DNA of 64,000 nucleotides from NCBI GenBank assembly GCA_947258545.1, contig CAMYJI010000004.1:6701-70700 (forward strand). Direction: 5' to 3'. This document shows positions 19,511 to 47,414 of this stretch, one piece after another. Under the pieces are notes generated by a model. That model worked only from the letters and a program-made list of their open reading frames with translations, was not told the DNA's origin and did not search any database. Within the stretch, counting starts at the first letter, position 1. The number at the start of each line of letters is the position of its first letter. The position numbers and the translations under genes are program-made. The DNA comes from an uncultured Ectothiorhodospiraceae bacterium. Lineage in GTDB: Bacteria; Pseudomonadota; Gammaproteobacteria; UBA9214.

Positions 19511-20877
19511 GTAATCCGGACAAGACATTGCTGGTGGTGGAAGATGACCCCGGCCTGCAGAAGGCCCTGCGCTGGGCCTTCAGCGAGTTCGAGGTGGTCA
19601 CTGCCGAGGACCGCAACAGCGCCATCGCCCAGCTGCGCCGCCACGAACCCCAGATCGTCACCCTCGACCTGGGGCTGCCGCCGGATTCGGGGGGCGCCAC
19701 GGAGGGGCTGGCGACGCTTGAGGAGATCCTCGGCCTGGCACCGGACACCAAGGTGATCGTGGTCACCGGCAACAACGACCGGGAAAATGCCGTACGCGCC
19801 ATCGGGCTGGGGGCCTGGCTGTTTTTCCAGAAACCGGTGGATGCCGAGCTGCTGAGCTTTATCGTGGAACGCGCCTCTACCCTGTACCAGCTGGAGCAGG
19901 AGAACCGGGCACTGTCGCGGCGCAACATCAAGGAACCGATGGCCGGCATTATCGCGACCAGCCCGCAGATGCTGGAGGCCTGCCGGACGGTCGAGAAGGT
20001 GGCGCCCACGGATGCCACGACGATGTTACTGGGCGAGAGCGGGACCGGCAAGGAACTGCTGGCGCGGGCCCTGCACGATCTCAGCCCCCGTGCCAAAGAA
20101 CGGTTTGTCGCCATCAACTGCGCCGCCATCCCGGATACCCTGCTGGAAAGCGAGCTGTTCGGCTATGAGAAGGGGGCCTTTACCGGCGCGGCCAAGCAGA
20201 CCATCGGCAATATTGAATACGCCGACGGCGGCACCCTGTTCCTGGACGAGGTGGGAGACCTGCCGCTGTCCCTGCAGGCCAAGCTGCTGCGGTTTCTGCA
20301 GGAGCGGATCATTGTCCGCGTCGGCGGGCGCAAGGAGATCCCGGTGGATGTGCGCGTGGTCTCGGCCACCCACCAGGACCTGGCTGAACTGATAGCGCAG
20401 GGCAGCTTCAGGGAGGACCTTTATTACCGGATCAGCGAAATCGAGATCAGGATCCCTGCACTCCGGGAGCGACAGGGCGAGGCCGCGGTCCTGGCCAATT
20501 ACTTCCTGGACAAGGAACGGGAGCAGCAGCACAAGGGCAAGCTTGCATTCAGCCCGGAGGCCCTGGCGGCAATCGACGCCTATACCTGGCCGGGTAATGT
20601 GCGCGAACTGGCCAACAAGGTCAAACGCGCGGTCATCATGGCCGATGGCAATCTGGTGACGGCGCGCGGGCTGGAACTGGCAGAGCCCGAGGGCGATGCC
20701 CAGCCGCTCAACCTGCGAGAAGTGCGGGAGGCCGCCGAAGGCCAGGCCCTGCTACGGGCGCTGAATCACGCCGGGGGCAATGTCTCCCAGGCCGCGACCC
20801 TGCTGGGGATCACCCGGCCCACCTTCTATGCGCTGATCAAGAAATACAAGCTGGATCTCGGCCAGACCGGGACGTAG
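19507..20877 (+). CDS. prsR: PEP-CTERM-box sigma54-dependent response regulator PrsR
   Basis: Receiver (VTLDLGLPPD), AAA+ (GESGTGKE, GAFTGA, WPGNVREL), Fis-type HTH; overlaps the prsK stop. Confidence 0.95.
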   Translation: MSNPDKTLLVVEDDPGLQKALRWAFSEFEVVTAEDRNSAIAQLRRHEPQIVTLDLGLPPDSGGATEGLATLEEILGLAPDTKVIVVTGNNDRENAVRAIGLGAWLFFQKPVDAELLSFIVERASTLYQLEQENRALSRRNIKEPMAGIIATSPQMLEACRTVEKVAPTDATTMLLGESGTGKELLARALHDLSPRAKERFVAINCAAIPDTLLESELFGYEKGAFTGAAKQTIGNIEYADGGTLFLDEVGDLPLSLQAKLLRFLQERIIVRVGGRKEIPVDVRVVSATHQDLAELIAQGSFREDLYYRISEIEIRIPALRERQGEAAVLANYFLDKEREQQHKGKLAFSPEALAAIDAYTWPGNVRELANKVKRAVIMADGNLVTARGLELAEPEGDAQPLNLREVREAAEGQALLRALNHAGGNVSQAATLLGITRPTFYALIKKYKLDLGQTGT

Positions 20878-21239: not shown

Positions 21240-23231
21240 ATGCAACAACCCTTCGACTACGATTCCGCCTTTTCCCGCAACATCGGCTGGATTACGGAAA
21301 CCGAACAGGCCCTGCTGAGAACCCGGCGTATTGCCATCGCTGGTCTCGGCGGCGTCGGTGGGAGTCACCTGCTTACACTGACACGCCTGGGCATCGGCAG
21401 ATTCAACATCTCGGACCTGGACAGCTTCGAGCTGGCCAACTTCAACCGCCAGGCCGGGGCCAGCCTGAGCCAGGTGGGTCGCCCGAAGGTGGAGGTACTG
21501 TCGGAGATGGCGCTCGATATCAATCCGGAGCTGCAGATCAACGCATTCCCCGAAGGCGTGAACCAGGAGAACCTCGATCGGTTCCTGGAAGATGTTGACC
21601 TCTACGTGGACGGCCTCGACTTCTTCGCGCTGCAAGCCCGCCGGGCGGTATTTGCCGCCTGTGCGGAGAAAGGCATTCCGGCCATTACCGCCGCGCCGCT
21701 GGGTATGGGGGCGGCACTACTCAACTTCCTGCCGGGCAAGATGACCTTCGAGGAATACTTCCGGCTGGAGGGGCACTCAGAGGACGAACAACTGCTGCGG
21801 TTCCTGCTGGGCCTCTCACCCGCTATGCTGCAGATGCCCTACCTGGTGGACGACAGCCGCGTCGATCTGGCGAACCACAAGGGCCCCTCGACCCCCATGG
21901 CCTGCGAACTCTGTGCCGGGATGGCGGCAACGCATGCGCTGAAGATCCTTCTTAACCGCGGCAACGTGCCGACGGCACCACGGGGGGTGCATCTCGATGC
22001 CTTCCGCAATAAATTGTCGTCTACGTGGCGACCGGGTGGGAATGGTAATCCTATCCAGCGGCTGGGATTGAAGATTGCGAGGAATCGACTATCAGAAAAA
22101 TTAACCATGTCTGTTGAAAGAGAAACCCTTCAGCGGTACGAAACGCCGATTGAAAGGATCCTGGATCTCGCCCGCTGGGCCCCCAGCGGCGACAACACCC
22201 AGCCCTGGCGGTTCGAACTCGTGGATGATACCCGCTTTATTATCCACGCCCACGATACGCGTGACTGGTGCGTCTATGACCTGGATGGCCGGGCGAGTCA
22301 GACGGCCGTGGGCGCCCTGCTGGAGACAATAGCGATTGCCGCTTCGGGCGAGGGGCTGGCTGCAGCGTTTTCCCGCAGGGAGGAATCACCGGAAAACAAT
22401 CCGGTCATCGAGGTAACCCTCTCTGAGTCATCTGCCCCGGAACCAGATCCCCTCCTGCCGTACATCCGCGCAAGGGTCACCCAGCGTCGGGGCTTCTCCA
22501 CCAGGGCGTTGACCGGTGCCCAGAAGAAAGTGCTGGAAGCATCAGTAGGTCCCGGATACCGCATCGTCTGGCTAGAAGGGTGGCAGCGGAAGTGGCAGAT
22601 GGCCAGGCTCCTCTTCCGTAATGCCCGCATACGCCTGACCATCCCCGAGGCCTACGAGGTTCATAAGCGGATAATCCAGTGGGATGCGCAGTTCAGCGAG
22701 GACCGGATCCCTGATCAGGCCGTGGGATTGGACCCGGTTGCACTCAAACTCATGAAATGGGCCATGCAGAGTTGGGGGAGGGTGCAGATGCTGAACCGCT
22801 ATTTTGCAGGCACCTGGATGCCCAGGGTTCAACTGGATCTGATCCCGGCACTTCGATGTGGTGCGCATTTTGCCATTGTCGCCGACAAACCAGTCGTGGA
22901 AATCGACGATTATCTGGCCGGTGGTAGGGCCTTGCAACGATTCTGGTTGACGACAACGAGACTGGGACTGCAGTTTCAGGCGGAAATGACGCCGTTAATC
23001 TTTTCTCGTTATACAGCGGTGTCAAGAAAATTTACAGTGGAAGAAAGGGCGATGAAAATGGCCACGGTGTTGGCGGCAGAATTAGTCGATCTGTTCGGCG
23101 ATGATTCGGTCTCCTGTAGCGTGTTCATGGGCCGCATGGGGAGCGGGAATGCACCGTTTTCGCGTTCCGTACGGCGAACAATATCGAATCTGTTCCTGCC
23201 AAGAATCAACCTAGGGCGTTCGTTGAAATAG
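21240..23231 (+). CDS. ThiF-like adenylyltransferase / nitroreductase di-domain enzyme (OxzB oxazolone synthetase architecture)
   Basis: N-terminal AFSRNIG..IAGLGGVGG..DLDSFELANFNRQ..DGLDFF (ThiF); C-terminal ARWAPSGDNTQPWRF..GRALQRFWL (nitroreductase). Confidence 0.88.
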   Translation: MQQPFDYDSAFSRNIGWITETEQALLRTRRIAIAGLGGVGGSHLLTLTRLGIGRFNISDLDSFELANFNRQAGASLSQVGRPKVEVLSEMALDINPELQINAFPEGVNQENLDRFLEDVDLYVDGLDFFALQARRAVFAACAEKGIPAITAAPLGMGAALLNFLPGKMTFEEYFRLEGHSEDEQLLRFLLGLSPAMLQMPYLVDDSRVDLANHKGPSTPMACELCAGMAATHALKILLNRGNVPTAPRGVHLDAFRNKLSSTWRPGGNGNPIQRLGLKIARNRLSEKLTMSVERETLQRYETPIERILDLARWAPSGDNTQPWRFELVDDTRFIIHAHDTRDWCVYDLDGRASQTAVGALLETIAIAASGEGLAAAFSRREESPENNPVIEVTLSESSAPEPDPLLPYIRARVTQRRGFSTRALTGAQKKVLEASVGPGYRIVWLEGWQRKWQMARLLFRNARIRLTIPEAYEVHKRIIQWDAQFSEDRIPDQAVGLDPVALKLMKWAMQSWGRVQMLNRYFAGTWMPRVQLDLIPALRCGAHFAIVADKPVVEIDDYLAGGRALQRFWLTTTRLGLQFQAEMTPLIFSRYTAVSRKFTVEERAMKMATVLAAELVDLFGDDSVSCSVFMGRMGSGNAPFSRSVRRTISNLFLPRINLGRSLK

Positions 23232-23441
23232 TGAAAATGCTATTTAATTGGTGATTACGTCGGTGTCGGAAGGCGTATCCTGCTATGCGCGCATTGATCG
23301 GTAAACGGGATTGCTGGAACTGGGTACCGAGCGGTTGCCTGTCGCGAAGTTCGTGCACAATGGGTTGATCCTCGGCGACGGGCGACGTCGTCTAGCGGAC
23401 AGATACCATGCATGCGAGCCATAAAGTCCTAGGGATAATAC

Positions 23442-23548
23442 CGTCAGTCTTTTTTACAATCTTATGAGTTCGGCAATCACCAGGGCGCGAATAAGATAAA
23501 ATAATACATATAAAACAGTAAAGTAGAAATTTTGGCACATGTCGTGCT
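23442..23548 (+). promoter_or_regulatory. PrsR-type box plus sigma54 promoter of PEP-CTERM gene 1
   Basis: CGTCAGTCTTTTTTACA (23442-23458); TGGCACATGTCGTGCT (23533-23548) with correct GG-N10-GC spacing. Confidence 0.75.
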
Positions 23549-23619
23549 TCTATATAAAGCAAAAATGTTAAAGTAAACACGGCTTAAGTCATGGCTGATC
23601 TAGTAGAGGAGATATCACA

Positions 23620-24645
23620 GTGGATACAAAAATATTACGTGACACATTGTTATTGGGTGCGATCTCTGTTGGCTTGATCGCTCCGGCACAAGCCACGACG
23701 CTGTTACTTAACGATTGGACATTGGACTTAACCGGTCTTGCTGAAGGGCTCGATGGCGGATTTTTAAGCACAGAACAACAGCACATCGTAACCGATATTT
23801 CACAAATCACCTTTTTGAGCGTGTTTCATTCGGTTACCAGTGACACGGTTACTGCCGACGGGCTCCCTACGGTGGGTGAAACCTTCCGTGTAACAGCGGG
23901 AGGTACTGGAACTGATTTCTTTGATGCTTCCAACACAAATGTATCGCCAACACTGTTTGGCTCGATACTAACAATACCGGGGAATACCCAAGCCGATGGA
24001 TCCGGCTCCGCCGTTGCCTTGGACGGATGGGAATTCACCTTCACGTTTGATATCAACGGCCAATACACCAATATTGACGGGCAGGACGCGAATTTCACCC
24101 ACCTTTCCGCAGCAGATTACTCCGGCACCGATGCAGGAACCGGTCAGCTGAAGCTGTACATCGATAATATCACCGATGGATCAGAAGCTACCTTGAACAG
24201 CCTTAACCAGAATGTGACAAATGGCACTTTGATCGCCACATTCGATGTGCGGTCCGGTGACGGCGGTGTTTTTGATTTTGGAGTCGGCGATGGTTCTGAC
24301 GACGCAACATTTGAGCTGGTCTCGGCATTAGCGGGAGTATTATTTGACGCGGATGGCAATGATCTCTCCTTGCTTACGGGTGATCCCATTTTAATCGGTG
24401 TCACGGACTCTAACTTTGATGCAAGTCCTGAGAACCCAGATGGAGGGGGCTTTGTGTTTGCTCCACAAGCCTTTGAATGCAATACACTGACTCTAAGTGC
24501 AATAAATTTCTGTGGGGAAGAAGATGGAAGCTTCCGCATCGGAACGCAAATACCCGAGCCTGCAACTATCGCCCTTTTAGGGATGGGATTCCTGGGGCTC
24601 GGAGGCGCAGCAGTCCGCCGTAAGAGAAAGGCGGCAACTCAATAA
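23620..24645 (+). CDS. PEP-CTERM sorting domain protein 1 (possibly flocculation-associated PepA-like)
   Basis: Signal peptide (..APAQA); Asp/Thr/Gly-rich body; C-terminal IPEPATIALLGMGFLGLGGAAVRRKRK; AGGAG RBS. Confidence 0.93.
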   Translation: MDTKILRDTLLLGAISVGLIAPAQATTLLLNDWTLDLTGLAEGLDGGFLSTEQQHIVTDISQITFLSVFHSVTSDTVTADGLPTVGETFRVTAGGTGTDFFDASNTNVSPTLFGSILTIPGNTQADGSGSAVALDGWEFTFTFDINGQYTNIDGQDANFTHLSAADYSGTDAGTGQLKLYIDNITDGSEATLNSLNQNVTNGTLIATFDVRSGDGGVFDFGVGDGSDDATFELVSALAGVLFDADGNDLSLLTGDPILIGVTDSNFDASPENPDGGGFVFAPQAFECNTLTLSAINFCGEEDGSFRIGTQIPEPATIALLGMGFLGLGGAAVRRKRKAATQ

Positions 24646-24674
24646 AATAACTCAGTAATCGAAAACGTTTGTAG

Positions 24675-24705
24675 GAAGGGGAGGCGCCGCGAGGTGCCTC
24701 TCTTC
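24675..24705 (+). terminator. Hairpin after PEP-CTERM gene 1
   Basis: GAAGGGGAGGCGCC-GCGA-GGTGCCTCTCTTC; no clear U-tract. Confidence 0.45.
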
Positions 24706-24941
24706 GCATGCGTCGCCCATACCCCGAGACTTACGGGGATCACCTCCACACTTCCTCAATCAACAGTAGAGCGGCTCCAGGACCCGCAACAGAAGCATCG
24801 CTACCCCATTCGACACGACGTAAATAAAAAGACCTACAATAGGGATGCAGCACGCACCGAATAAGATTAAGCTAGGCCTCGGCAGTAGAGAGCGCCGGCT
24901 ATCCAGCCTACTATTTTAGGTTTTTCGCATAAGATGACAAT

Positions 24942-25823
24942 ATGCCGAGTGTAAGTGTCCTCTTGACGGTCTTGCGTGAACTGACCACCAATGAACGCAG
25001 TCCTCGTGTTAACGAACCTGATCTCGTCATGGACGATCCGGAGAAGGTTGCGGCCTATACCCGTGCCGGCCGGGAAGACGGGGTCATGGCGCCGGTCTAT
25101 CTTTATCACTGCGCCCAGATCTGTGAAGTGATTCGCCCAGGTGATACAGTGATCGATCTCGGATGCGGACCCGCCACCCAGCTGGCCATGGTAGCCCGGC
25201 TCAATCCCGAAACTCAATTTATTGGCCTGGACCTCTCGCGCGAAATGTTGCAGCGAGCTCAAAGTCATGTGGAAGAACAAGACCTCAACAACGTCGAGCT
25301 ACGACAAGCAGATATAACTGACCTGGCATTTCTCCAGGAAAACAGCGTGGAGGCAGTCATATCGACAATGGTCCTGCACCACCTTCCTAACGTTGATGCC
25401 TTGGGGAAAACCTTTGCTGAGATCGGTCGCGTGTTAAAACCATACGGTGGGCTTTATCTGGTTGATTTCGGACACTTGAGATCTGAGAAGTCGATTAACT
25501 ACTTCGCCTACCAGTACGTTGATCGACAGCCCGAGTTGTTCACGCTCGATTACCTTTACTCGCTACGCGCGGCCTTCCAGCGCGATGAGTTCAAGCGGTT
25601 AGCGGAAAAATATCTATCCGGTCACACGCGCATCTACTCCACTTTCCTAATGCCGTTCATGGTAGCGATAAAGAGCCCTCCCCGTGCCAACGGCGATCCA
25701 CAAGTAAGAGAACGATTGGCACATATAAAGTCTCGACTGCCCGACTACCACAAAACCGATCTGTTGGATTTGTGCACCTTTTTCCGGCTCGGCGGACTGA
25801 AGAGTGCGCTATTATTCCCTTAA
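24942..25823 (+). CDS. Class I SAM-dependent methyltransferase
   Basis: VIDLGCGPA, IGLDLS.EML, STMVLHH, RVLKPYGGLYLVD; N-terminal RVNEPDLVMDD. Confidence 0.9.
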   Translation: MPSVSVLLTVLRELTTNERSPRVNEPDLVMDDPEKVAAYTRAGREDGVMAPVYLYHCAQICEVIRPGDTVIDLGCGPATQLAMVARLNPETQFIGLDLSREMLQRAQSHVEEQDLNNVELRQADITDLAFLQENSVEAVISTMVLHHLPNVDALGKTFAEIGRVLKPYGGLYLVDFGHLRSEKSINYFAYQYVDRQPELFTLDYLYSLRAAFQRDEFKRLAEKYLSGHTRIYSTFLMPFMVAIKSPPRANGDPQVRERLAHIKSRLPDYHKTDLLDLCTFFRLGGLKSALLFP

Positions 25824-26063
25824 ACAAAGGAAAGCCTTAATCTCTGATCAGACTGCTCGACAAACACTGGCGGGGCACTACTTCAGAGCCAATAGGTGAG
25901 CAGATCAAGCCCATTATTTTGAGACAGGCTAAAAGGTTACATGGGCCCCTGCAATAGTAAAGTTACGGGCTATTTTCTTCACATTTATCGCTCAGTCACG
26001 TACTGGGCACTTCGAATATAATTACCATATATTTACGTTTGATCCGCAGGACGGGATATTATT

Positions 26064-28838
26064 ATGAACATTATTTTTAAGGGATTACTGGGTCTATGTG
26101 TGATTTGGTTGTCTATCGCCTGTAGTGGCAGCCTCACTGATGCGCAACACGTGGAAAGAGCCCAGGATTACTTTGACCGGGGTGAACTGAAGACGGCCAC
26201 TATCGAACTTAAGAATGCCTTGATGCAGAACCGTGAAAACGCCCAGGCCCGCTGGCTGCTGGGTAAACTGTATCTTGAAGTTGGCAATGCTGCGGGAGCA
26301 GAAAAGGAGTTGCGGTATGCCAGCAAATTCGGCGTAGTGGATGGCGCGGTACTGCCCTTGTTGGCTCGGGCACTTCTGGCTCAGGGCAAGCATGATGACC
26401 TACAGGCGCTATCCTTGGCAAATCTCGCGGCCAAGGACCAGAAAGCCGTGGTCCTGGCTGTTAAGGGGCTTGGCAAGCTCGTTCAAGGGGAAGTCGATGG
26501 GGCCGCAGAGCAGATCGAGGAGGCAGTATCGCTGAACCCCCAATCGGCTTATGTGCGCGTGGCCAAGGCGCGCCTGTTGGCGGCAAAACGGGAAGATGAC
26601 CTTGCTCGCAAGGAACTGGACCAGGTCTTTTTGCTGGATGCCGATTATGCGCTGGCCTGGAGTCTGCAGGGTGACCTGGAAAGCCGGGACAAGAATCTGG
26701 CGGAGGCGGAGGCGGCCTATACAAAGGCCGTGGAAATGCGCGCGAACAGCCGTTCCGATTTGCTGAAACGGGCGCAGGTCCGCATCCAGCAGAAAAAGTA
26801 TGAGGCCGCCCAGGAGGATATCGATGTCCTGAAAAAGCGGGCCCCGCGACATGCAGGCGTCAATTATGCGCAGGGCCTGATTCATTTCCAGAAGAACCGC
26901 TTGCCAGAGGCCAAGGAAGCCTTTGATCTCACGTTAGCGGTTAATAATCGCCACCTGCAAGCCATGTATTACTTAAGTCTGACCCATCTGCGCCTGGGCA
27001 ACCTGGAACAGGGCGAAGAATACGGCAACCGGTTTCTCGCGGCGGCCCCTCTCTCCATTGCTGGTCGCAAGCTCATGGCAACCATAGAACTCGGAAACCG
27101 GCAATATGCTGTGGCAGAGCAACTGATACGCCCGGTTGTGGCCTCCCGGGAAGATGATATGGCGGCCCTCAATTTACTGGCCTTTGCTGTTTTTAAACAA
27201 AACAAAACGGACGAGGCGGTTGAACTGCTGGGAAAAGCGGCCAGGCTGCAGCCGGATTCCGCCGTTGCTCAATTTCTATTGGGAGCAGGCCTGCTGGCGG
27301 CTGGGAAGCAGGCCGAGGGGATTGAGCATATTGAAAAAGCCCTCGAGTTGGAGCCCCAGTTTCAGCAAGCAGATGTCCTGTTGGTTCAGAACTACCTGGA
27401 GCAGAAGGAGTTCGCCAAGGCCTTTAATGCGGCGCAGGCCTATCGGAATCGCCACCCGGACAGCTCGGCCCCCTATAATTTTATTGGACAATTACAGCTT
27501 GTTTCCGGACAGGAGACGAAAGCCAAACAAGCCTTCGAGCGTGCCCGCGAGATTGCACCGGGTGATCCGGAGGCCAGTCACAGCCTGGCAGAACTGGCCA
27601 TCAGTAAAAAGGACTACCAGGAAGCCCGCAGCTATTACCAAAATGTGCTGGAGCACCACGAGAACCACCTCTCGACCCTATTGAAACTGGCTGTCCTAGA
27701 TGCGCTGGAGAAAAAGAAGCAGCCCATGGTGGTGCATCTCCAGCAGGCGGTATTGGCACACCCACAAGCACTCCAGCCGAAGGTGTTGTTGGCCCGCTAC
27801 TATCTGACTCAGGGCCAGCTCGCGGAGGTGCAGGCGCTCATGATTGGATTGAGCAATAAGCAAAGGTACACACCCGCTGTTCTCGAAGTGATGGCGCTGT
27901 ACCAGTTGGTGCAGAAGCAATATTCCGAGGCGAAGAACAGTCTGGAACAGTTGATCGAGCAACAACCCAATTCCGCTCAGATTCATATCCTGTTGGCGCA
28001 GGCATACGCGGGTTTGGGAGAACGCGCCGGCCTTAAGGGGGAACTGGAGAAAACCATTGAATTGATGCCAAGGCACTTTGCTGCCCGTCTGGCGCTGGCC
28101 CGGCTGATGTTGCTGGAAGGGCAGAGAGATAAGGTCGATGAGCAGCTTGCGGTGCTCAACGAGCTTTCCCCCGAACACCCCGACGTATTGCTGCTAAAAG
28201 CTGAGTTGGCACGGGTTCAGGGTGACCAGAAGACAGCAACGGGCCTGCTGGAGGATGTGTTTGAAAAGTCACCCAGTACTGCCAGTATGCTTTCTGTCGC
28301 CCGTCAGAAATGGGCCACGGGCGATCAGATGGCGGCATTGGAATTGCAGGAACAGTGGACGGTGGAGCATCCGGATGATCTAGTCGCACCACTGGCGTTG
28401 GCAGGCGCCTACCTCCAGCAAGATCAAGTCCAACGGGCAATTGCTCAATTTCAGCGGGTGTTGGAGAAAGAGGAGCAGAATGTTGTTGCGCTCAACGAGC
28501 TCGCATGGCATCTGCGCGATAAGGAGCCTGCGAAGGCGTTGGAGTATGCGGAACGTGCTGCCGAACTCGCGCCGGAATCTGCTGAAGTGATGGATACGCT
28601 TGCGATGGTCTTGTTGAAAAACGGTGACATTGTGCGCGCAAAACGGAACATAGAGCGGGCACTGGCAAAAAAGCCGAAAAAACCTGTTTTTCATTATCAC
28701 GGTGCTATGATAGATGCAGCCGCAGGGGATAAGGCATCTGCGATCGAGGCGTTGGAATCTCTGCTGAGTGAGGGCAGCGATTTTTCTGAAAAGGCGGAGG
28801 CGCAGCAGTTGTTGGCCGAACTGCAGGCGGGCGGTTGA
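26064..28838 (+). CDS. prsT: PEP-CTERM system TPR-repeat lipoprotein PrsT (copy 1)
   Basis: Lipobox SIAC; ATIELKNAL..ARWLLGKLYL..AEKEL; many TPRs; ALNELAW, DTLA near the C-terminus. Confidence 0.9.
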   Translation: MNIIFKGLLGLCVIWLSIACSGSLTDAQHVERAQDYFDRGELKTATIELKNALMQNRENAQARWLLGKLYLEVGNAAGAEKELRYASKFGVVDGAVLPLLARALLAQGKHDDLQALSLANLAAKDQKAVVLAVKGLGKLVQGEVDGAAEQIEEAVSLNPQSAYVRVAKARLLAAKREDDLARKELDQVFLLDADYALAWSLQGDLESRDKNLAEAEAAYTKAVEMRANSRSDLLKRAQVRIQQKKYEAAQEDIDVLKKRAPRHAGVNYAQGLIHFQKNRLPEAKEAFDLTLAVNNRHLQAMYYLSLTHLRLGNLEQGEEYGNRFLAAAPLSIAGRKLMATIELGNRQYAVAEQLIRPVVASREDDMAALNLLAFAVFKQNKTDEAVELLGKAARLQPDSAVAQFLLGAGLLAAGKQAEGIEHIEKALELEPQFQQADVLLVQNYLEQKEFAKAFNAAQAYRNRHPDSSAPYNFIGQLQLVSGQETKAKQAFERAREIAPGDPEASHSLAELAISKKDYQEARSYYQNVLEHHENHLSTLLKLAVLDALEKKKQPMVVHLQQAVLAHPQALQPKVLLARYYLTQGQLAEVQALMIGLSNKQRYTPAVLEVMALYQLVQKQYSEAKNSLEQLIEQQPNSAQIHILLAQAYAGLGERAGLKGELEKTIELMPRHFAARLALARLMLLEGQRDKVDEQLAVLNELSPEHPDVLLLKAELARVQGDQKTATGLLEDVFEKSPSTASMLSVARQKWATGDQMAALELQEQWTVEHPDDLVAPLALAGAYLQQDQVQRAIAQFQRVLEKEEQNVVALNELAWHLRDKEPAKALEYAERAAELAPESAEVMDTLAMVLLKNGDIVRAKRNIERALAKKPKKPVFHYHGAMIDAAAGDKASAIEALESLLSEGSDFSEKAEAQQLLAELQAGG

Positions 28839-29213
28839 TTGCAGAGGTTGCCCATGCTTCTTTGTGTGTTAGCGGTTCGTTGAAATTTTCCGGACGAGGC
28901 ATGTGCTTGGTACCGTGCCTGGGCCGGTAATCTGGACCTGGTGATATGCCAGAATTCCCCGCCAATGAGAAGCTGTTTCTCGATGGACTATCGGTGTGTG
29001 ACCTGTTTGATCGTATCCATCTGAAATTAATATAATAAATACTATTCTAAGGGCATGAGTCGAAGGCCTGAGAAACAATTATTTGTTGTTGACTAAGTTC
29101 CTGCACATGCCGGCCGATGTATATCAATAGTATTTGATAAACGGTGTGCGAGGCGGGCTGCAAGGGGCAGATCTGAATTGGCCTCGTGATCGCCGTGTGG
29201 CTGGTACCGGGAC

Positions 29214-29993
29214 ATGGTCAATATGCGCGAATTATTCTATCGGTATTTCGATGTCATCTGTAATGATGAACAGGATGTCCTTGATGAGGCACTCCAGCTT
29301 CGCTACCAGGTTTACTGCCTCGAGCAAGGCTTCGAGGAGGCATCCCGGTTCCCTGACGGCAGGGAGTCGGACGGGTTTGATGGGCGCGCGGTCCACAGTA
29401 TTGTGCGTCACCTCGATTCAGGCCTGACCGCTGCGACTGTCAGGCTGGTGCTGCCGGATCCGAATGAACCGGAAGCACTCTTTCCCATAGAAGAGAACTG
29501 CGCAGCTTCGATTCAGTCAGCCGCCTCGCTGGTGCAGGGGGTCCCGCGGGCATCGATAGCGGAGATATCCCGGTTTGCGGTTTCCAAGGAATTCAAGCGC
29601 CGGCTCGGGGAGAAGGGCTCCGTGGCCGGGATAGGCCCGGACCCGGGTGTGTATGTCAGACCTGACCCGAAAAAGGTCCGGCAGCTGCCGCACCTGATAT
29701 TGGGTCTGTTCGCCGCCATTGTGAAAATGAGTGCTCAACACAATGTCACGCACTGGTATGCCGTGATGGACGTGTCCCTGCTGCGCCTGTTGTCCCGCTT
29801 TGGCATCCGCTTTTTGCCCATGGGTGAACAGGTGGATTACCATGGTTTTCGCCAACCGTGTTTCGGCAGCATCGATGCAGTGCTCGCCGGTATATGGGAA
29901 AAACGTCCGGACATCTGGCAGCTGATCACGGCCGATGGCAGCGTGTGGCCGGCGCCGGCGACTGCCAGTCGGGATGCGTGTGCTGGCGGATAA
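29214..29993 (+). CDS. PEP-CTERM/exosortase-associated acyltransferase (N-acyl amino acid synthase, FeeM/TIGR03694-like), copy 1
   Basis: LRYQVYCLE, ESDGFD, TVRLVLP, AEISRFAV, WYAVMD..LLRLL, VDYHGFRQP. Confidence 0.9.
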   Translation: MVNMRELFYRYFDVICNDEQDVLDEALQLRYQVYCLEQGFEEASRFPDGRESDGFDGRAVHSIVRHLDSGLTAATVRLVLPDPNEPEALFPIEENCAASIQSAASLVQGVPRASIAEISRFAVSKEFKRRLGEKGSVAGIGPDPGVYVRPDPKKVRQLPHLILGLFAAIVKMSAQHNVTHWYAVMDVSLLRLLSRFGIRFLPMGEQVDYHGFRQPCFGSIDAVLAGIWEKRPDIWQLITADGSVWPAPATASRDACAGG

Positions 29994-30252
29994 CATGTGA
30001 CCTGGCCCGGCAATTAGTGTATTTCCCTCCGGCCACCAGCCAAATTTCTTCTGAACCTGTACCGTCTCCAATCGGAGACAAACTTACCTAAATCAAATCA
30101 GTTAGATAACGCATTTAGCAACCGGTGCGTCGTTAGTCAGTGACAATTCCAGCCTGTTAAAGGCCTTATCTACCTGCTAGTATAAGCGACCTTCAAGATA
30201 CTAATAATCTAAGCGACTGATCGAACAGTAAAAAATAATTAAATTATATTTC

Positions 30253-30268
30253 TGGCACGGTCATTGCA
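30253..30268 (+). promoter_or_regulatory. Consensus sigma54 promoter of acyltransferase copy 2
   Basis: TGGCACGGTCATTGCA matches TGGCACG-N4-TTGCW, preceded by an AT-rich tract. Confidence 0.8.
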
Positions 30269-30360
30269 GCCATATGGTAGGAGCGACCGTTGTCCAGGCT
30301 GGGGCGATACAACGCCGACCGCTCCAGGCTTGAATTCTTCTATTGGGGGTGCACTGGCAC

Positions 30361-31146
30361 ATGAATGATCTCTACGAGGCATTTCATCACCATTTCGATG
30401 TGGTTTCGGCAGATACCACCCGCCTGATCGAGACGGCCTACCGGTTGCGCTACCAGGTCTATTGTCTGGAGAGACCCTACGAGGACTCGCAGGCATTTCC
30501 GCAGCAGATGGAACATGATGAATTTGATCTGCACTCGATCCACAGCCTGGTGAAGTGCAGGAGATCGGGTAATTATACCGGCCTGGTCAGGCTGGTCTTG
30601 CCGAATCCGGTCGACCCGGAGGCCCACCTGCCCATGGAAAAATTCTGTTACGCCGACCCGAAAAGTACCGGGATCGATTTGTCACACGTGCCCCGGGAAT
30701 CGATTGCGGAGATATCGAGGTTTTCTGTCTCCAAGGCGTTAATGCAGCAGTGCGTTGCGAAGAGTGAACTCGTTTCCGTCGACAGGGATTTTGGAAGAGA
30801 GGATGAAGGCGTGCAGCAGGGCGGTGTGAAGGCGTCCCAGATGCTACCGCATATCACCCTGGGCCTGTTCGCAGGCATCGTCCGGATGAGTGCCCAACAC
30901 AGGATCACCCACTGGCTCGCGGTCATGGAGCCCACCTTGCTCCGGTTCCTGACCCGCTACGGGATTCATTTCCAGTCAGCCGGTCCCCTGGTCAACTATC
31001 ACGGCAAGCGCCAGCCGGCGGTGGCTGAAATCGACACCGTACTGGCCGGTATTCATGCCAAACGCAGGGATGTCTGGAACATCATCACGGACTATGGGCG
31101 TATCTGGCCGCTCAACGGTTCCGCAGAAGTGGCCGGGGCCAGATAA
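30361..31146 (+). CDS. PEP-CTERM/exosortase-associated acyltransferase (N-acyl amino acid synthase-like), copy 2
   Basis: AYRLRYQVYCLE, EHDEFD, LVRLVLP, AEISRFSV, WLAVMEP.LLRFL, VNYHGKRQP; clear paralog of the preceding gene. Confidence 0.9.
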   Translation: MNDLYEAFHHHFDVVSADTTRLIETAYRLRYQVYCLERPYEDSQAFPQQMEHDEFDLHSIHSLVKCRRSGNYTGLVRLVLPNPVDPEAHLPMEKFCYADPKSTGIDLSHVPRESIAEISRFSVSKALMQQCVAKSELVSVDRDFGREDEGVQQGGVKASQMLPHITLGLFAGIVRMSAQHRITHWLAVMEPTLLRFLTRYGIHFQSAGPLVNYHGKRQPAVAEIDTVLAGIHAKRRDVWNIITDYGRIWPLNGSAEVAGAR

Positions 31147-31244: not shown

Positions 31245-32942
31245 TCAGAAATACCGGGCCAGTTCGATCTGCAGGTAATCATCATTTCTGAATGAAAACA
31301 TCGCATCATTCAGGGGGATATTCGAGAAGAACCGCGCTTCCAGTTCCAGCATCCAGTTCTCTCCGATGCGGCGGCTGGCCTCAAGATTGAAGCTCTTGCC
31401 GCTTGTATCCAGGTCGGAGATGATGCCGAACAGGGCCTCGGTGGACTGCATATCATTCAGGGCCAGGCGCAGGCCCACCATGATGTCATCCTCGAACGGC
31501 GTCGGTGCCGATTCTCCGCGATCGTCGAAGTGGTATTCGCCGATGACGCCCAGGTCGGCTGATGTGTCGAGTATACCGACGGCGGTGTATTCAAAGCCCC
31601 CGACCAGCGCGGTGTAGCGATCGCCCTGTCCTGAACGGGTCAGCCATTCGAGCTTCCATAACCAGTCCCCCTTGGTGGCCTGGAGGTCCAGGCTGGTCTG
31701 GTCGATGGTGTCATACAGCGGCACCAGCACCATCTCACCGCCGGGTCTCAGGTCCGGTACAAATCGCGGGTCCCGGCTGGTGCCGGCGAAGTGGGCGAGG
31801 CCGAAGTCCCAGTCACCGATGTAATGTGACCAGCGGATCGCGAAATCGACGTGTTTTTCCTCTGCCGCAGAGGCGTATAACGGATTGTCGACGTCGACGC
31901 GCGGCAGGCTGCGCAAACGTCCTTCCTGCCCGGGAAAGGTGCGCTCCCGGAAGCCGGGCAGCAGAAACAGGTCAACGGTGCCGAAGTCACGAATCAGCGC
32001 CAGGTTGATCATGGGCTGTCCCAGCTTGTCCTCACGATCGATGTTTTCGACCAGGTCGGTCTGGTTGATGATGTCGACCAGGTGCTGTGATTCCGCCACC
32101 CCCCAGAAGACCTTGCTGATCCCGGCGCGCAGCTCCCAGCTATCTGCGGCGATTTGCCATAACAGCTCGCGGATATCGGCATGGGTGCGCTCATCATCGT
32201 GCTGGTCCCAGCGATAGAAGGGTTCGAAGGTGAGGCTTTGCCTGCCGTTTGCCCAGGTGGTGTGGAACTCGGGCTGGATGTAAAACGAAAGGTTGTTGCC
32301 ATGCTGGGATGGATCCACAGGGTCATGGGGAAACAGGCGGGCCTCCAGTGCAATAAAGCCGGATGACTTGCCCTCGCGGAGTACTATCGGCAGTACAAAG
32401 GGGGGTAATTTTTTTTCTGAAGCAGGGCGGTCTTCCGGGTCTTTTTTCAGCGCCAGTATTCGGGGCTGTTCCGGGCTGCCTGACATCGCTGGTCCTGACC
32501 CGCCGCTTGCGTCGTCAGTCCTTTCTTGTGTGGGGTCAGCAGCTGACGAGGCCCGGGGCGGGGCCTGTGACTTCAGGCTAGTACGGGTTGAGCCGCTGGC
32601 CGTGCCCGGCGTGGTGGTGTGGACAACAAACCCCTTCAAGCCCGCCTGGAGGAGCTGGCTACGCATGATATCTGCGCTTTCCCTGTCCGGATACGGGCCG
32701 ACCCTGACGCGCGTCAGGTTGCCCGGGTTGCGTTCTGGCGGTGACGGAGTGGCCGGAAAACCCTGGTCCTGTAGCTGCGTGGCAAGCCGCACCGCCTTGT
32801 CATGATTTTTAAAGGCGCCGACCTGGACGGTGAATTCAGCCAGGGCCATGCCGCAAGCCTGCATTAGACAAATACCCAGGATACCGGCGGTTGGCCAGTG
32901 CCAGGTGCGGCGTATGCGTCTTGTGCTATTCATCCTGGTCAT
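31245..32942 (-). CDS. SPOR domain fused to a putative outer-membrane beta-barrel
   Basis: Signal peptide; SPOR FTVQVGAF..RVRVGPY; low-complexity linker; beta-strand-rich region (VFWGVAES.HLVDIINQ) ending in ELARYF; start uncertain. Confidence 0.8.
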   Translation of the reverse strand: MTRMNSTRRIRRTWHWPTAGILGICLMQACGMALAEFTVQVGAFKNHDKAVRLATQLQDQGFPATPSPPERNPGNLTRVRVGPYPDRESADIMRSQLLQAGLKGFVVHTTTPGTASGSTRTSLKSQAPPRASSAADPTQERTDDASGGSGPAMSGSPEQPRILALKKDPEDRPASEKKLPPFVLPIVLREGKSSGFIALEARLFPHDPVDPSQHGNNLSFYIQPEFHTTWANGRQSLTFEPFYRWDQHDDERTHADIRELLWQIAADSWELRAGISKVFWGVAESQHLVDIINQTDLVENIDREDKLGQPMINLALIRDFGTVDLFLLPGFRERTFPGQEGRLRSLPRVDVDNPLYASAAEEKHVDFAIRWSHYIGDWDFGLAHFAGTSRDPRFVPDLRPGGEMVLVPLYDTIDQTSLDLQATKGDWLWKLEWLTRSGQGDRYTALVGGFEYTAVGILDTSADLGVIGEYHFDDRGESAPTPFEDDIMVGLRLALNDMQSTEALFGIISDLDTSGKSFNLEASRRIGENWMLELEARFFSNIPLNDAMFSFRNDDYLQIELARYF

Positions 32943-33390
32943 GTCTGCAGGCGGGGTTACTGGTGGAGACTCGCGCCTGTTTTCCCTCGACCGGCGTCTC
33001 CACAAACACTATCGGTTTATGGAAGATACAGGGCGGAATGTTCGAACCTCGGCTATGATACCGCATCAACCGCACCGGCTCCTACAGGAAGTCGGTTCCG
33101 GTCACTGTCCCGTGCCCCCTTATTCGCGTGACCTGACATCCGCGTGCGCCCTTGACATGCGTGGATGCCGGGCGCCGTCACCTGCTATCTTTCTCCCGGT
33201 GATTTGTCTAAGATGTCAAATTACAGTCGCAACACCGGGCCGGGACGGGGCTTCGCCCTGCCATCACAGATGTACTCCCTAATGACGTAACAGGAGCCGG
33301 CAGACTCGATTTGTTCCTAACCACCCGAGATGTTTTGCCAAATCACGTTTTGACCCGTTTTATCAACCATCAGTCTTTTTATATCTCTCT

Positions 33391-36195: not shown

Positions 36196-36223
36196 CTCTC
36201 AGCGCGGCTGAATGTCAATAAAC

Positions 36224-36418
36224 TGTCAGTTAATTTTACACCAATCTCGATAAGCTAACGATTTGTTTATTAAGTATAAGTATCGGTTTCCCCGGGAATC
36301 ACCCGATTTAGTTGCCTCTAGCCTGTCTCGATGCTTTACAGAATGGCGCCCGGTGACTTCGCTTGTATAAAAAAAGAACCAGAAAACAAGTAGATGCGTT
36401 GTAGGAATGAAGATTGCA
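36224..36418 (+). promoter_or_regulatory. Two PrsR-type boxes plus sigma54 promoter of PEP-CTERM gene 2
   Basis: TGTCAGTTAATTTTACA (36224-36240), TGTCTCGATGCTTTACA (36324-36340), AGGAATGAAGATTGCA (36403-36418, GG-N10-GC). Confidence 0.75.
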
Positions 36419-36515
36419 TGTTAATTGACAGACAGGTGGGCGTTACCGGAATGGCGCACATGTACTATGATGACCACTGTGAACTTGATGTAATGACACT
36501 TCGATTTGTAGGGAC

Positions 36516-37520: not shown

Positions 37521-37547
37521 CCTCAAACAACACCAACACCAATCCAC

Positions 37548-37572
37548 AGGCCGGCTTCATGCCGGCCTTTTT
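37548..37572 (+). terminator. Intrinsic terminator after PEP-CTERM gene 2
   Basis: AGGCCGGC-TTCAT-GCCGGCCT followed by TTTT. Confidence 0.8.
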
Positions 37573-37861
37573 AGTGCCTGTCGAAAAAAGGGGCATTCCG
37601 GTTTTTGTATTGTTTCGCCGGCCTGGATTTCCCGATGGCCGAAAAACCGGGATGTCCCCTTGATTCAGAAAGATAATTCCCCGTGGCAATTCAGTGGAAT
37701 TGGTGTATGTTTGCAGACAGATTTAATGTGACATTCTGCACAGAAAAGAATATAGTTAATGATTACAGGCGCCTTAAATTTGACGGTGCCTTGTATAACT
37801 ATATGATATCCAGAAGAATTAAGGATTAATCCACGGACCACTATCTACCAGGGGATCGACC

Positions 37862-38494: not shown

Positions 38495-38688
38495 CGCGGC
38501 CGGTCCCGGGAGACGGGCAGTAACCGGCAGACAGGCATATCAGGCGTTCATAGCCGGATTTACAACAAACAAGGGAGCCCGGCCGGTCGTGGGGATTATA
38601 AGTACCGGTCTGAATAACCAGGCAGGAGGCGACATTATCCCGCGCGCAGTGTGGGCAGTCTTTTAGCGGGGCGAAGGAAGATTCTGAA

Positions 38689-41198: not shown

Positions 41199-41205
41199 TA
41201 CCCGC

Positions 41206-42753: not shown

Positions 42754-42755
42754 TC

Positions 42756-45012: not shown

Positions 45013-45017
45013 CAGCC

Positions 45018-47410: not shown

Positions 47411-47414
47411 TCTC

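Follow-up and report, generated by a model that had tools for sequence, protein, structure and literature searches.

Among the closest described systems is the OxzA/OxzB pathway to oxazolones (tyrazolone/phenazolone), known from Pseudoalteromonas rubra and four further proteobacteria (de Rond, Asay & Moore, 10.1101/2020.06.11.147165), in which a ThiF+nitroreductase di-domain enzyme is paired with a PF13444-type N-acyltransferase; the preprint contains no mention of exosortase, PEP-CTERM or methyltransferase. The mycobacterial TyzACB and TrzAS (Rv1355c) acyl-oxazolone pathways (PMC10404671, PMC12856293) also use ThiF and FDO-A chemistry on N-acyl aromatic amino acids, and N-acyl amino acids are broadly desaturated by FDO-A enzymes (PMC10404671). 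The stieleriacine cluster of the planctomycete Stieleria maiorica Mal15 (Kallscheuer et al. [quoted passage not shown] In the proposed scheme N-acyl tyrosine is cyclised by the TcdA-like enzyme, and the oxidoreductase creates the alpha,beta double bond. A pathway to ring-methylated N-acyl dehydrotyrosines was proposed from the annotation, not proven, and the methylated product has a biofilm-related effect; the accessible text reports no prsKR context (PMC7293339). The link between NAS and PEP-CTERM, for which Craig et al. 2011 is cited, dates from 2011 and concerns the acyltransferase alone, and none of the papers found in our searches mentions a ThiF-nitroreductase partner. In Methylomonas LW13 a mutant of the PEP-CTERM-associated NAS (ExoAT) does not form the polysaccharide band (PMC11072679). 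Given the 2011 link and the methylated product of 2020, the statement of an initial annotation of the present locus that it knew of no description of a link to floc/EPS formation, or of a methylated product, was overstated. In our literature search, no paper described OxzB-type enzymes as an accessory that recurs in proteobacterial PEP-CTERM loci.

The DNA analysed here (the window) is a 64,000-nucleotide stretch from an uncultured Ectothiorhodospiraceae bacterium. NCBIfam and Pfam profile matches show that a complete PEP-CTERM/exosortase EPS locus fills it from 15.9 to about 56 kb (Table 1). ORF and HMM analysis located on the + strand, where the initial annotation had placed them, the genes that follow prsK-prsR: a ThiF-nitroreductase fusion, a PepA-like PEP-CTERM gene (NF033554 PepA 52 bits, under the family cut-off of 80), a SAM methyltransferase, prsT and two TIGR03694 acyltransferases, AT1 and AT2. 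The window thus resembles the stieleriacine cluster in its several NAS genes, ThiF-family enzyme, oxidoreductase, methyltransferase, PEP-CTERM gene and EPS surroundings, but in the planctomycete the cyclase and the oxidoreductase are separate genes. It differs from OxzA/OxzB in the added methyltransferase and in the location beside prsKR within a PEP-CTERM/exosortase EPS locus, as exosortase and PrsK are both absent from the fusion-carrying Pseudoalteromonas ardens and Pseudoalteromonas sp. SMS1; the same is true of Fluoribacter gormanii.

Table 1. Coordinates, strand and supporting matches of the features of the window
Feature	Position	Strand	Evidence
TIGR03013 XrtA/PEP-CTERM priming glycosyltransferase, EPS locus start	15905..17314	+	TIGR03013 541 bits, cut-off 393
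PrsK, PEP-CTERM sensor histidine kinase	17405..19510	+	TIGR02916 775 bits, cut-off 300; GAF + HATPase_c
PrsR, sigma-54-dependent PEP-CTERM-box response regulator	19507..20877	+	TIGR02915 687 bits, cut-off 503
OxzB-like ThiF + FMN nitroreductase (FDO) fusion, 663 aa	21240..23231	+	Pfam, NCBIfam
Sigma-54 -24/-12-like site, 72 nt 5' of PEP-CTERM gene	23533..23548	+	TGGCAC-N5-TTGCW, 1 mismatch
PepA-like PEP-CTERM sorting-signal protein	23620..24645	+	TIGR02595 23.1 bits, cut-off 16
Class I SAM-dependent methyltransferase, accessory	24942..25823	+	Pfam Methyltransf_31/25/11
PrsT TPR lipoprotein, copy 1	26064..28838	+	TIGR02917 671 bits
AT1, N-acyl amino acid synthase-type acyltransferase	29214..29993	+	TIGR03694 257 bits, cut-off 112
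Sigma-54 -24/-12 consensus, perfect, 75 nt 5' of AT2	30253..30268	+	0 mismatches, single site
AT2, AT1 paralogue	30343..31146	+	TIGR03694 259 bits, cut-off 112
SPOR-domain protein	31245..33005	-	PF05036
PrsT copy 2, PEP-CTERM protein 2, EPS export protein, chain-length determinant	33391..40254	+	TIGR02917, TIGR02595, TIGR03027, TIGR03007
Rest of PEP-CTERM EPS locus	40251..56279	+	TIGR03018, 03016, 03015, WecB, 03006, 03019, 03087, 03088, 03108
Exosortase W	49066-50718	+	NF038142 483 bits, cut-off 425

The N-terminal half of the fusion matches PF00899 (ThiF, residues 12-260, E 7.7e-43) and the C-terminal half is of the nitroreductase type (PF00881, E 9.6e-6; NF047509, Acg-family FMN oxidoreductase, residues 307-580, E 1.9e-33). 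The AlphaFold2 model (pLDDT 90.3) consists of two domains, with residues 290-297 forming a linker of low confidence between them, the first similar to ThiF 1zud (TM 0.84) and the second to the Acg homologue 2ymv (TM 0.74). Among 29 diverse homologues GxGGxGG, D61, N69-R70-Q71, K83 and D127 are invariant in the ThiF half, as is PSGxNxQ in the nitroreductase half. Kinship to OxzB was judged through congeners of P. rubra, taken as a proxy for the characterised enzyme. The identity is 51% over residues 1-653 with the homologue from P. ardens R96 and 49% with that from SMS1, both of which are encoded directly 3' of a same-strand acyltransferase gene as a canonical oxzA-oxzB pair, and all three proteins belong to one 50-row gamma/beta clade (SH-aLRT 99). 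With this proxy the fusion falls in the OxzB clade, and the comparative evidence gives good support to its assignment as an OxzB-type enzyme and to an OxzAB-type interpretation of the locus. The nitroreductase half also matches the Rv1355c-family model (E 5.7e-54), but the fusion stays under the curated cut-offs of that family (NF005901, 183 vs 476) and of NF011424 (421 vs 1170). The mycobacterial pathways have other acyltransferase types as well, and they occur in actinobacterial hosts with no PEP-CTERM context.

The locus can probably be considered an EPS locus with a built-in accessory module, in which the product of the acyltransferases would be converted to an oxazolone by the fusion. As their family membership suggests, AT1 and AT2 would join a fatty acyl thioester and an amino acid into long-chain N-acyl amino acids. 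The ThiF domain would then adenylate the free carboxylate, allowing the amide oxygen to close the 5(4H)-oxazolone ring, and the FMN nitroreductase (FDO) domain would desaturate the alpha,beta bond to give an acyl-oxazolone, which in water may open to the N-acyl dehydroamino acid. Cyclisation and desaturation are predicted on the basis of the homology of the fusion to OxzB and TyzBC.

The acyltransferases are 46% identical to each other and both pass the TIGR03694 cut-off, in agreement with the known association of NAS with PEP-CTERM loci; so do the OxzA-like proteins of P. ardens and SMS1 (154.7 and 130.5 bits, cut-off 112). The description of AT1 and AT2 as FeeM-like paralogues stands as to family and paralogy, PF13444 being clear, but the Pfam FeeM match itself is weak (26.5 and 29.9 bits, cut-off 27). 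AT1 and AT2 belong to a TIGR03694 subclade of 17 rows (SH-aLRT 94) separate from the OxzA-type 'immediately upstream' clade (35 rows, SH-aLRT 98), and the window fusion has no adjoining acyltransferase, the nearest one being located 6 kb downstream, past three genes. The split oxzAB pathway of the initial annotation, although favoured by the fusion's clade, by co-occurrence and by natural domain fusions, is thus an analogy and not an orthology of the A component, and the interpretation as a whole is partly supported.

This separate subclade also favours the idea that N-acyl amino acids are the end products of the acyltransferases, as in NAS-only loci, while the fusion acts by E1/MccB/PaaA-like chemistry on some other carboxylate, which could belong to an EPS precursor or be the C-terminal one of a peptide or PEP-CTERM protein. 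This alternative would fit the presence of MccB, PaaA and AclA among the structural neighbours of the fusion, the protein, peptide or tRNA substrates of most characterised ThiF-family enzymes (10.1101/2020.06.11.147165), and the PEP-CTERM protein gene found directly 3' of the fusion in the window and in loci L107, L120 and L117. We consider it unlikely: N-acyl amino acids are the substrate of every biochemically characterised ThiF-FDO member in the sources available (OxzB, TyzBC, TrzS), the acyltransferase gene is immediately upstream of the fusion gene in 25 of 80 loci, and 9 of the 17 members of the AT1/AT2 subclade are divergently adjacent to a fusion gene. The nearest relative of AT1 (70% identical, genome G021) has this arrangement. 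NAS domains are, in addition, naturally fused to ThiF(-NTR): metagenomic proteins include NAS+ThiF, FeeM+ThiF+NTR, two MT+ThiF proteins, where MT is a methyltransferase domain, and MT+ThiF+FeeM. On pDV1 of Desulfovibrio (Nitratidesulfovibrio) vulgaris Hildenborough, the genes of PrsT, a TIGR03013 glycosyltransferase and PEP-CTERM proteins neighbour that of a 989-aa tri-domain protein (WP_011176612.1; NF011425/PRK14852) whose sole annotation is 'ThiF family adenylyltransferase'. This protein differs from the window fusion, to which it is 33-38% identical, in the NAS (FeeM) domain fused in front, the different phylum of its host and its position in the outgroup clade.

Co-occurrence was scored in a single sample of 400 class-level genomes, with overlaps counted by hand from the match tables. 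The ThiF gene was matched in 36 genomes from 26 families, and the expected association with PrsK was found (34/102 PrsK-positive vs 2/298 PrsK-negative genomes). A TIGR03694 protein above the cut-off was present in 29 of the 36 ThiF-positive genomes vs 18 of the 364 ThiF-negative ones, these last being consistent with acyltransferases that work without the fusion. Such ratios overstate the statistical weight because related genomes are not independent. Since 7 of the 36 ThiF-positive genomes have no TIGR03694 protein above the cut-off and 68 of the 102 PrsK-positive genomes have no ThiF gene, the module is accessory and not core. Within about 10 kb of the ThiF gene an acyltransferase was found in 22 and a PEP-CTERM-system marker in 24 of the 36 loci of this sample, and in 44 and 40, respectively, of a second set of 80 loci; the ThiF gene is usually inside a PEP-CTERM locus. 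In Pseudocolwellia agarivorans, for example, the row reads acyltransferase, fusion, PepA, PrsT, PrsT, exosortase. Chance falls far short of explaining either the HMM scores or the repeated appearance of this gene arrangement in other genomes.

The genes could instead be accidental neighbours, with no shared function, in a mosaic EPS island assembled by horizontal transfer. The GC content drops to 0.51-0.56 across 22-32 kb, between flanks of 0.61-0.66. The closest homologues of the fusion are from other orders (72% to L083), whereas for the acyltransferases the best relatives come from a genome of the same family, in which the fusion is only 58% identical; these differing nearest relatives suggest piecemeal assembly. 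Nevertheless, the same gene set is found in the 26 class-level families and also in Alphaproteobacteria and Desulfovibrio loci, and the domains of the module are fused in several lineages, so that accident, already disfavoured, is very improbable.

The methyltransferase may be an optional tailoring enzyme of the oxazolone module, with O, N or C as the putative substrate atom, a role proposed because of its context-specific distribution. The gene is rare and lies mostly beside the module: homologues (E<=1e-20) were found in 7 of the 400 genomes, all PrsK-positive, and a ThiF gene adjoins four of the six non-self copies within about 1-2 kb (G128, G441, G133, G198). The order fusion, PEP-CTERM gene, methyltransferase is common to the window, L107 and Thiobacillus denitrificans (L120). 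Methylation has also been recruited repeatedly to such chemistry, as the independent MT-ThiF and MT-ThiF-FeeM proteins indicate, and stieleriacines are methylated N-acyl dehydrotyrosines (PMC7293339); the enzyme of that cluster is described as an SfmM2-like tyrosine C3-methyltransferase. A less probable, though sizeable, alternative is that the methyltransferase acts outside the lipo-amino-acid pathway, on an EPS sugar or on a protein or lipid of the PEP-CTERM system. Only 5 of the 36 ThiF-positive genomes (G000, G128, G133, G198, G441) possess the gene, which was found in 4 of 40 and 5 of 80 loci, and the copy in G182 is within a PrsK-PrsR-acyltransferase locus without a ThiF gene. Furthermore, its similarity to solved enzymes (MitM, RebM-like, CouO/NovO) is that of a generic class I enzyme, and the similarity to ThiF-fused methyltransferase domains is weak (31% over 85 aa).

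Both gene location and phylogenetic distribution tie the module to the PEP-CTERM system under PrsK/PrsR control, and for this reason the most likely role of its predicted product is in the physiology of flocs, EPS or biofilms, where it could be a signal, a surfactant or a modifier. Many bacteria share the pairing of probable lipo-amino-acid ring enzymes with slime or floc loci, which gives a hint of the purpose of these little-understood molecules.

No conserved sigma-54 promoter was found 5' of the fusion gene across 80 loci. The distance of the first sigma-54-like site in Table 1 from its gene agrees with the mean of 71 nt for the PEP-CTERM box (Haft 2006), but this site and the one preceding AT2 are only suggestive as promoters because window-wide counts are at chance level. 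Homologues of the SPOR-domain protein were detected by tblastn in 2 of 40 loci (L048, L081) and in 6 of 80 loci of the second set (L089, L091, L093, L094, L097, L156).

The genes between 15.9 and 40 kb of the window were called on the + strand from ORFs and from Pfam and NCBIfam profile matches (see the table), and these results therefore bear out the gene calls and coordinates of the initial annotation. Between prsR and prsT of a PEP-CTERM system, the window has a ThiF-nitroreductase fusion similar to OxzB, the cyclising partner of the N-acyltransferase OxzA in oxazolone formation. It has no adjoining OxzA, and its two acyltransferases (AT1 and AT2) belong to a sister subclade and are accompanied by a rare methyltransferase. 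Other PEP-CTERM-system families and an exosortase continue downstream to about 56 kb, and at least ten such families plus the exosortase are present in the window alongside the TIGR03694 genes. The families around the exosortase, which NCBIfam assigns to XrtW, are all "XrtA/PEP-CTERM" ones. Homologues of the SPOR-domain protein flank the module in the gammaproteobacterial loci L048, L081, L089, L091, L093, L094, L097 and L156. The 3.26-Mb assembly of this genome (164 contigs) includes one fusion of this kind, and its TIGR03694 genes are AT1 and AT2 alone. A second ThiF-family match in this genome (C55) is 32% identical over 160 amino acids and unrelated.

Features of the window with their coordinates and profile matches
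Feature	Coordinates	Strand	Remarks
TIGR03013 priming glycosyltransferase	15905-17314	+	NCBIfam
PrsK	17405-19510	+	775 bits, above cut-off
PrsR	19507-20877	+	687 bits, above cut-off
ThiF + nitroreductase protein (fusion), 663 aa	21240-23231	+	
PEP-CTERM protein	23620-24645	+	PepA-like, under PepA cut-off
Class I SAM methyltransferase	24942-25823	+	
PrsT	26064-28838	+	above cut-off
AT1, TIGR03694 acyltransferase	29214-29993	+	257 bits, cut-off 112
AT2, TIGR03694 acyltransferase	30343-31146	+	259 bits, cut-off 112
SPOR-domain protein, 586 aa	31245-33005	-	sole recognised domain SPOR, residues 57-128
Second PrsT, second PEP-CTERM gene, export protein, chain-length determinant	33391-40254	+	
Exosortase	49066-50718		exosortase W (XrtW) by NF038142, 483 bits against cut-off 425; not XrtA
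REP-associated tyrosine transposase	60397-61017		NF047646, 152 bits; directly past the EPS locus

Pfam and NCBIfam place both domains of the fusion in one polypeptide, with an adenylating N-terminal half of the ThiF/E1 type and a C-terminal FMN nitroreductase half of the Acg/FDO type. The ThiF half clears the cut-off of NF006077 (435.6 bits versus 266), and the nitroreductase half matches NF047509 with an E value of 1.9e-33. The scores against the Rv1355c (TrzS) family NF005901 (E 5.7e-54, 183.5 bits) and the ThiF-NTR subfamily NF011424 (PRK14851; 421.5 bits) are below the curated cut-offs of 476 and 1170, respectively. An AlphaFold2 model built with 29 homologues has a mean pLDDT of 90.3, and in it a linker of low confidence (residues 290-297) connects the two domains. 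In Foldseek searches the first domain matched ThiF (1zud), AclA, PaaA and MccB, and the second matched the Acg homologue of M. smegmatis (2ymv); a sequence search of the PDB found no OxzB-type structure. In the alignment of the 29 homologues, residues G35/G37/G38/G40/G41, D61, N69-R70-Q71, K83 and D127 of the ThiF half and the motif P315-S316-G317-x-N319-x-Q321 (PSGxNxQ) of the flavin domain are invariant, and we take these motifs to be responsible for binding of ATP and FMN, respectively. The family comprises at least 2766 proteins at E≤1e-10 among 8000 scored candidates, and 693 representatives (50% clustering) at E≤1e-30. In the sampled genomes ThiF and nitroreductase are frequently encoded by adjoining separate genes instead of one fused gene.

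A scan of species genomes matched at least 600 stretches, at least 440 of which encode relatives of the fusion, and 80 named loci were kept. The matches listed include Pseudoalteromonas ardens, Pseudoalteromonas sp. SMS1, Pseudocolwellia, Colwellia sp., Janthinobacterium and Massilia; none of the five species with a characterised OxzB (P. rubra and four others) is among them. The P. rubra protein is listed in PMC12596934 as UniProt A0A5S3UR53. Identity to the fusion is 51% for the homologue of P. ardens R96 (over residues 1-653), 49% for that of SMS1, 53% for Pseudocolwellia agarivorans and 47% for an uncultured Colwellia sp. Maximum likelihood analysis of 78 full-length fusions (quick search in IQ-TREE with LG+G4, the Desulfovibrio-type clade serving as root) placed the window's fusion and the Pseudoalteromonas/Pseudocolwellia proteins in one 50-row gamma- and betaproteobacterial clade (SH-aLRT 99), the sister of which is a 23-row clade rich in alphaproteobacteria. 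With congeners standing in for the characterised enzymes, the fusion, proposed by the initial annotation to be of the OxzB type, would therefore not fall outside the OxzB clade. Its closest relatives are gammaproteobacterial MAG proteins (L083-L085, 72-67% identical).

The two Pseudoalteromonas loci have the canonical oxzAB layout, in which an ORF for an acyltransferase stops a few bases 5' of the fusion ORF on the same strand, and the pair has RimK, aconitase and TonB receptors as neighbours. In Pseudocolwellia the acyltransferase gene is followed by those for the fusion, PepA (93 bits, which exceeds the cut-off), two copies of PrsT and an exosortase, in that order. No oxzA-type gene lies directly upstream of the window's fusion on the same strand, this position being occupied by prsR, and the acyltransferases are found 6 kb downstream. 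Exosortase (TIGR02602) and PrsK were each detected in two of five genomes checked: both are present in Janthinobacterium sp. GW456P and a Sedimenticolaceae MAG, and neither was above cut-off in the two Pseudoalteromonas genomes or Fluoribacter gormanii.

De Rond et al. (preprint 10.1101/2020.06.11.147165) showed the product of OxzA to be N-acyl tyrosine or N-acyl phenylalanine, and describe a base-labile yellow colour for the oxazolones. The OxzA-like proteins encoded 5' of the fusion score 154.7 (P. ardens), 130.5 (SMS1) and 266.6 bits (Pseudocolwellia) against TIGR03694 (cut-off 112), and are members of this family, named "PEP-CTERM/exosortase system-associated acyltransferase". AT1 and AT2 are 46% identical to each other. 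When 100 TIGR03694-type proteins drawn from all loci, 15 of them from ThiF-negative genomes, were placed in a tree, a 35-row clade (SH-aLRT 98) included the Pseudoalteromonas proteins and 23 of the 31 enzymes encoded immediately upstream of a fusion. AT1 and AT2 are located in a separate 17-row clade (SH-aLRT 94) and are thus not OxzA orthologues. Nine members of the latter clade are encoded divergently adjacent to a fusion gene, five nearby, and one is from a ThiF-negative genome; a tandem pair beside a fusion in a genome of the same family (G021, locus L081) is closest to AT1 (70% identity) and AT2 (62%). The split oxzAB pathway suggested by the initial annotation is therefore an analogy as far as the A component is concerned; the subclade of AT1 and AT2 is nevertheless a habitual partner of the fusion. 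Markers of the PEP-CTERM system were found in just 3 of the 15 acyltransferase loci from ThiF-negative genomes. In one such genome (G367, locus L170, 8330-10300) a TIGR03694-type acyltransferase divergently adjoins a methyltransferase 30% identical to that of the window, and may represent an acyltransferase-methyltransferase pair that acts without the cyclase.

The fusion, TIGR03694 and PrsK were scored in the same 400 class-level genomes (G300 was unscored), with at most three candidates per genome in the fusion search and overlaps counted by hand; the acyltransferase and PrsK tallies include the unpublished genomes G348, G360, G092 and G194. The fusion or its ThiF half was present at E≤1e-30 in 36 genomes representing 26 family codes, TIGR03694 was above cut-off in 47, and PrsK matched 102 at E≤1e-40 and exceeded its cut-off in 98 of these. 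An acyltransferase accompanies 29 of the 36 ThiF-positive genomes (the exceptions are G147, G255, G331, G333, G368, G409 and G411) as against 18 of the 364 ThiF-negative ones. The association of the fusion with PrsK that the initial annotation implied is seen in 34 of the 36 ThiF-positive genomes, all except G234 (560 contigs) and G331; conversely, ThiF is found in 34 of 102 PrsK-positive and 2 of 298 PrsK-negative genomes, and all three genes occur together in 28 of the 400. Because kinship makes the genomes non-independent, these ratios serve as a description of the sample and not as a test. OxzB-like genes are, in this sample, nearly confined to PrsK-positive genomes. Within the window's own order a fusion match was found in 8 of 54 genomes (3 of the 26 of high quality), which makes the distribution of the gene patchy even between close relatives.

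Gene neighbourhoods were compared by tblastn with the window's proteins in the other 35 ThiF-positive genomes, which gave 36 loci, and in 4 order-level genomes, each over a stretch of at most 20 kb surrounding the ThiF match; PrsK, PrsR, PrsT, TIGR03013 and the export or chain-length protein were taken as PEP-CTERM markers. In the class-level sample at least one TIGR03694-type acyltransferase is present in 22 of the 36 loci and two in 12; at least one marker is present in 24, or 18 when PrsT is left out. Six loci have neither, four of these being contigs or stretches no longer than 14 kb. The 80 named loci include an acyltransferase in 44 cases, immediately upstream on the same strand in 25, and a marker in 40 (30 when PrsT is left out), and 11 of the 51 with full flanks have neither. 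Three alphaproteobacterial loci (L141, L146 and L147) consist of consecutive genes for the acyltransferase, the fusion, TIGR03013 glycosyltransferase, PrsK, PrsR and PrsT. In Gammaproteobacteria, Betaproteobacteria, Alphaproteobacteria and Desulfovibrio, the usual location of OxzB-like genes is inside an EPS locus. Among the loci of another kind are those of Janthinobacterium spp. L109, L110 and L114, where ThiF and nitroreductase are encoded by separate neighbouring ORFs (both listed for L109), the ThiF ORF alone is about 290-300 amino acids long, and both acyltransferase and PEP-CTERM marker are absent within 10 kb. Two upstream ORFs were scanned in L109: one encodes a chemotaxis receptor and the other has weak, sub-cut-off matches to peptidase-like families, and PrsK and exosortases are found elsewhere in that genome. 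[quoted passage not shown]

The same domains are also found joined in single proteins. A tblastn search of plasmids matched five records, one of which, pDV1 of D. vulgaris Hildenborough (NC_005863.1, L012), includes at 5068-8037 a gene for a 989-amino acid protein composed of FeeM (150 bits), ThiF and nitroreductase (NF011425). The neighbours of this gene are PrsT, TIGR03013 glycosyltransferase and three PEP-CTERM proteins, in a plasmid-borne PEP-CTERM locus; its product is annotated merely as "ThiF family adenylyltransferase". A scan of 17 representatives of odd length identified Acetyltransf_5 + ThiF (P0188), FeeM + ThiF + nitroreductase (P0215) and, in metagenomic proteins, class I methyltransferase + ThiF (P0202 and P0259) and methyltransferase + ThiF + C-terminal FeeM (P0258), as well as four with the reversed order nitroreductase-ThiF (P0230, P0240, P0248 and P0257). 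Genome G366 has an acyltransferase-ThiF ORF of 673 amino acids.

Homologues of the window's methyltransferase (E≤1e-20) were found in 7 of the 400 genomes, all PrsK-positive: the window's own genome (G000), G128 (72% identity), G441 (63%), G133 (57%), G182 (38%), G198 (35%) and G362 (30%). In G128, G441, G133 and G198 no more than about 2 kb separates the gene from ThiF, and in G182 it is inside a PrsK-PrsR-acyltransferase locus without a ThiF gene. It is present in 5 of the 80 named loci, including those of Thiobacillus denitrificans RG and Ectothiorhodospira shaposhnikovii, and loci L107 and L120 share the window's order of fusion, PEP-CTERM gene and methyltransferase. Its relatives of solved structure are MitM, RebM-like enzymes, CouO/NovO and sterol C-methyltransferases, at E values of 1e-12 or weaker, and do not discriminate between O-, N- and C-methylation; its Atlas matches are generic class I families. 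Orthology to the methyltransferase domains fused to ThiF was considered and rejected, the similarity being generic only. We conclude that the methyltransferase is a rare, context-specific putative tailoring enzyme of the module.

The initial annotation knew of no description of a link between such a pathway and EPS formation, or of a methylated product. The same idea had in fact been proposed for the stieleriacines of a planctomycete, which the available text of Kallscheuer et al. 2020 (PMC7293339) describes as C12 N-acyl dehydrotyrosines with a C-methylated ring. As described there, the proposed cluster includes four NAS genes, a methyltransferase, a ThiF-family "tRNA threonylcarbamoyladenosine dehydratase" that would cyclise N-acyl tyrosine, and an oxidoreductase that would add the double bond, with a PEP-CTERM gene within the cluster and EPS genes around it; the text also cites a 2011 link between NAS and PEP-CTERM. 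By that description, NAS, ThiF-family cyclase, oxidoreductase, methyltransferase and PEP-CTERM gene are all present at 21240-31146 of the window, which differs in having cyclase and oxidoreductase fused and in its host; the pathway idea is the same, and in the planctomycete it was proposed from annotation alone. Two "UBA/THIF-type" genes appear, their function undiscussed in the text consulted, in a biofilm cluster of Rubrivivax gelatinosus (2013, PMC3684757). The terms "PEP-CTERM" and "TIGR03694" were not found in the oxazolone literature searched (de Rond preprint, JBC 2023, JBC 2025 and a 2025 ThiF review), and a search joining oxazolone with exosortase found nothing relevant. An OxzB-type gene with OxzA/TIGR03694 as a recurrent accessory of PrsK-type PEP-CTERM loci was likewise not found in the literature searched, which covered the de Rond work in its preprint form.

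The enzymology that the initial annotation had proposed for the module, in which amino acids would be acylated, cyclised and oxidised to oxazolones and methylated, is the best-supported reading of these sequences and is probably correct. A much bolder view, which we consider unlikely, is that PEP-CTERM/exosortase systems have long and repeatedly carried the OxzAB-type module as an accessory, the stand-alone pairs studied so far, such as those of Pseudoalteromonas, being escaped copies. On this view, the small-molecule partner missing from the system would be the electrophilic acyl-oxazolone of the module, or the N-acyl dehydroamino acid formed when its ring opens. The product could then be a labile AHL-like cue, sensed by membrane PrsK, that turns on PEP-CTERM/EPS genes, or else an activated lipo-amino-acid covalently transferred to exosortase substrates or polysaccharide, and the methyltransferase would tune its reactivity or diffusion. 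The chief value of the window is the cross-genome pattern, which offers a candidate biological context for oxazolones, compounds whose role the accessible text of the de Rond preprint (10.1101/2020.06.11.147165) states to be unknown. Oxazolone enzymes and PEP-CTERM-associated NAS are brought together as the same module, uniting two observations, and the reason why NAS travel with PEP-CTERM/exosortase systems is a question standing since 2011. This context, the formation of flocs and biofilms, bears on activated sludge. Tractable organisms share the arrangement, candidates among the non-pathogenic ones being Pseudocolwellia agarivorans QM50, Thiobacillus denitrificans RG (with fusion, PEP-CTERM gene and methyltransferase), Nitrosospira multiformis and floc formers of the Zoogloea or Aquincola type; through the cross-genome pattern a long-noted gene association becomes a matter of specific, testable experiments.

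A perfect sigma-54 -24/-12 consensus is located 75 nt 5' of AT2 and a one-mismatch site 72 nt 5' of the PEP-CTERM gene. By their position, these two sites may correspond to the PEP-CTERM box of Haft et al. 2006 (PMC1569441), for which the text available gives a mean distance of 71 nt and a few sites also before other genes; the fit is suggestive only. The window has no excess of TGGCAC-N5-TTGCW (36 sites with up to two mismatches versus 37.4 expected, and 2 with up to one versus 3.06). Over the 1300 nt that precede ThiF, the 80 named loci have two sites with up to one mismatch, as against 2, 0 and 0 in the controls, and a conserved sigma-54 promoter for the fusion was therefore rejected. With window counts at the level of chance and no conserved site before the fusion, co-regulation of the module by PrsR would be only a lead. 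The region upstream of the fusion (20917-21034) and the AT2 leader (30279-30304) share two 11-mers and a 9-mer in a different order; the 11-mers were treated as chance because the two regions gave no colinear alignment and Rfam had no match between 20 and 32 kb.

The G+C content is 0.51-0.56 over the block from the fusion to AT2 (22000-32000) versus 0.61-0.66 in prsKR and the second prsT, and comparable dips occur at 6-10, 12-16 and 48-54 kb. A mosaic assembly of the locus is suggested by this dip in combination with the mixed affinities that fusion and acyltransferases show.
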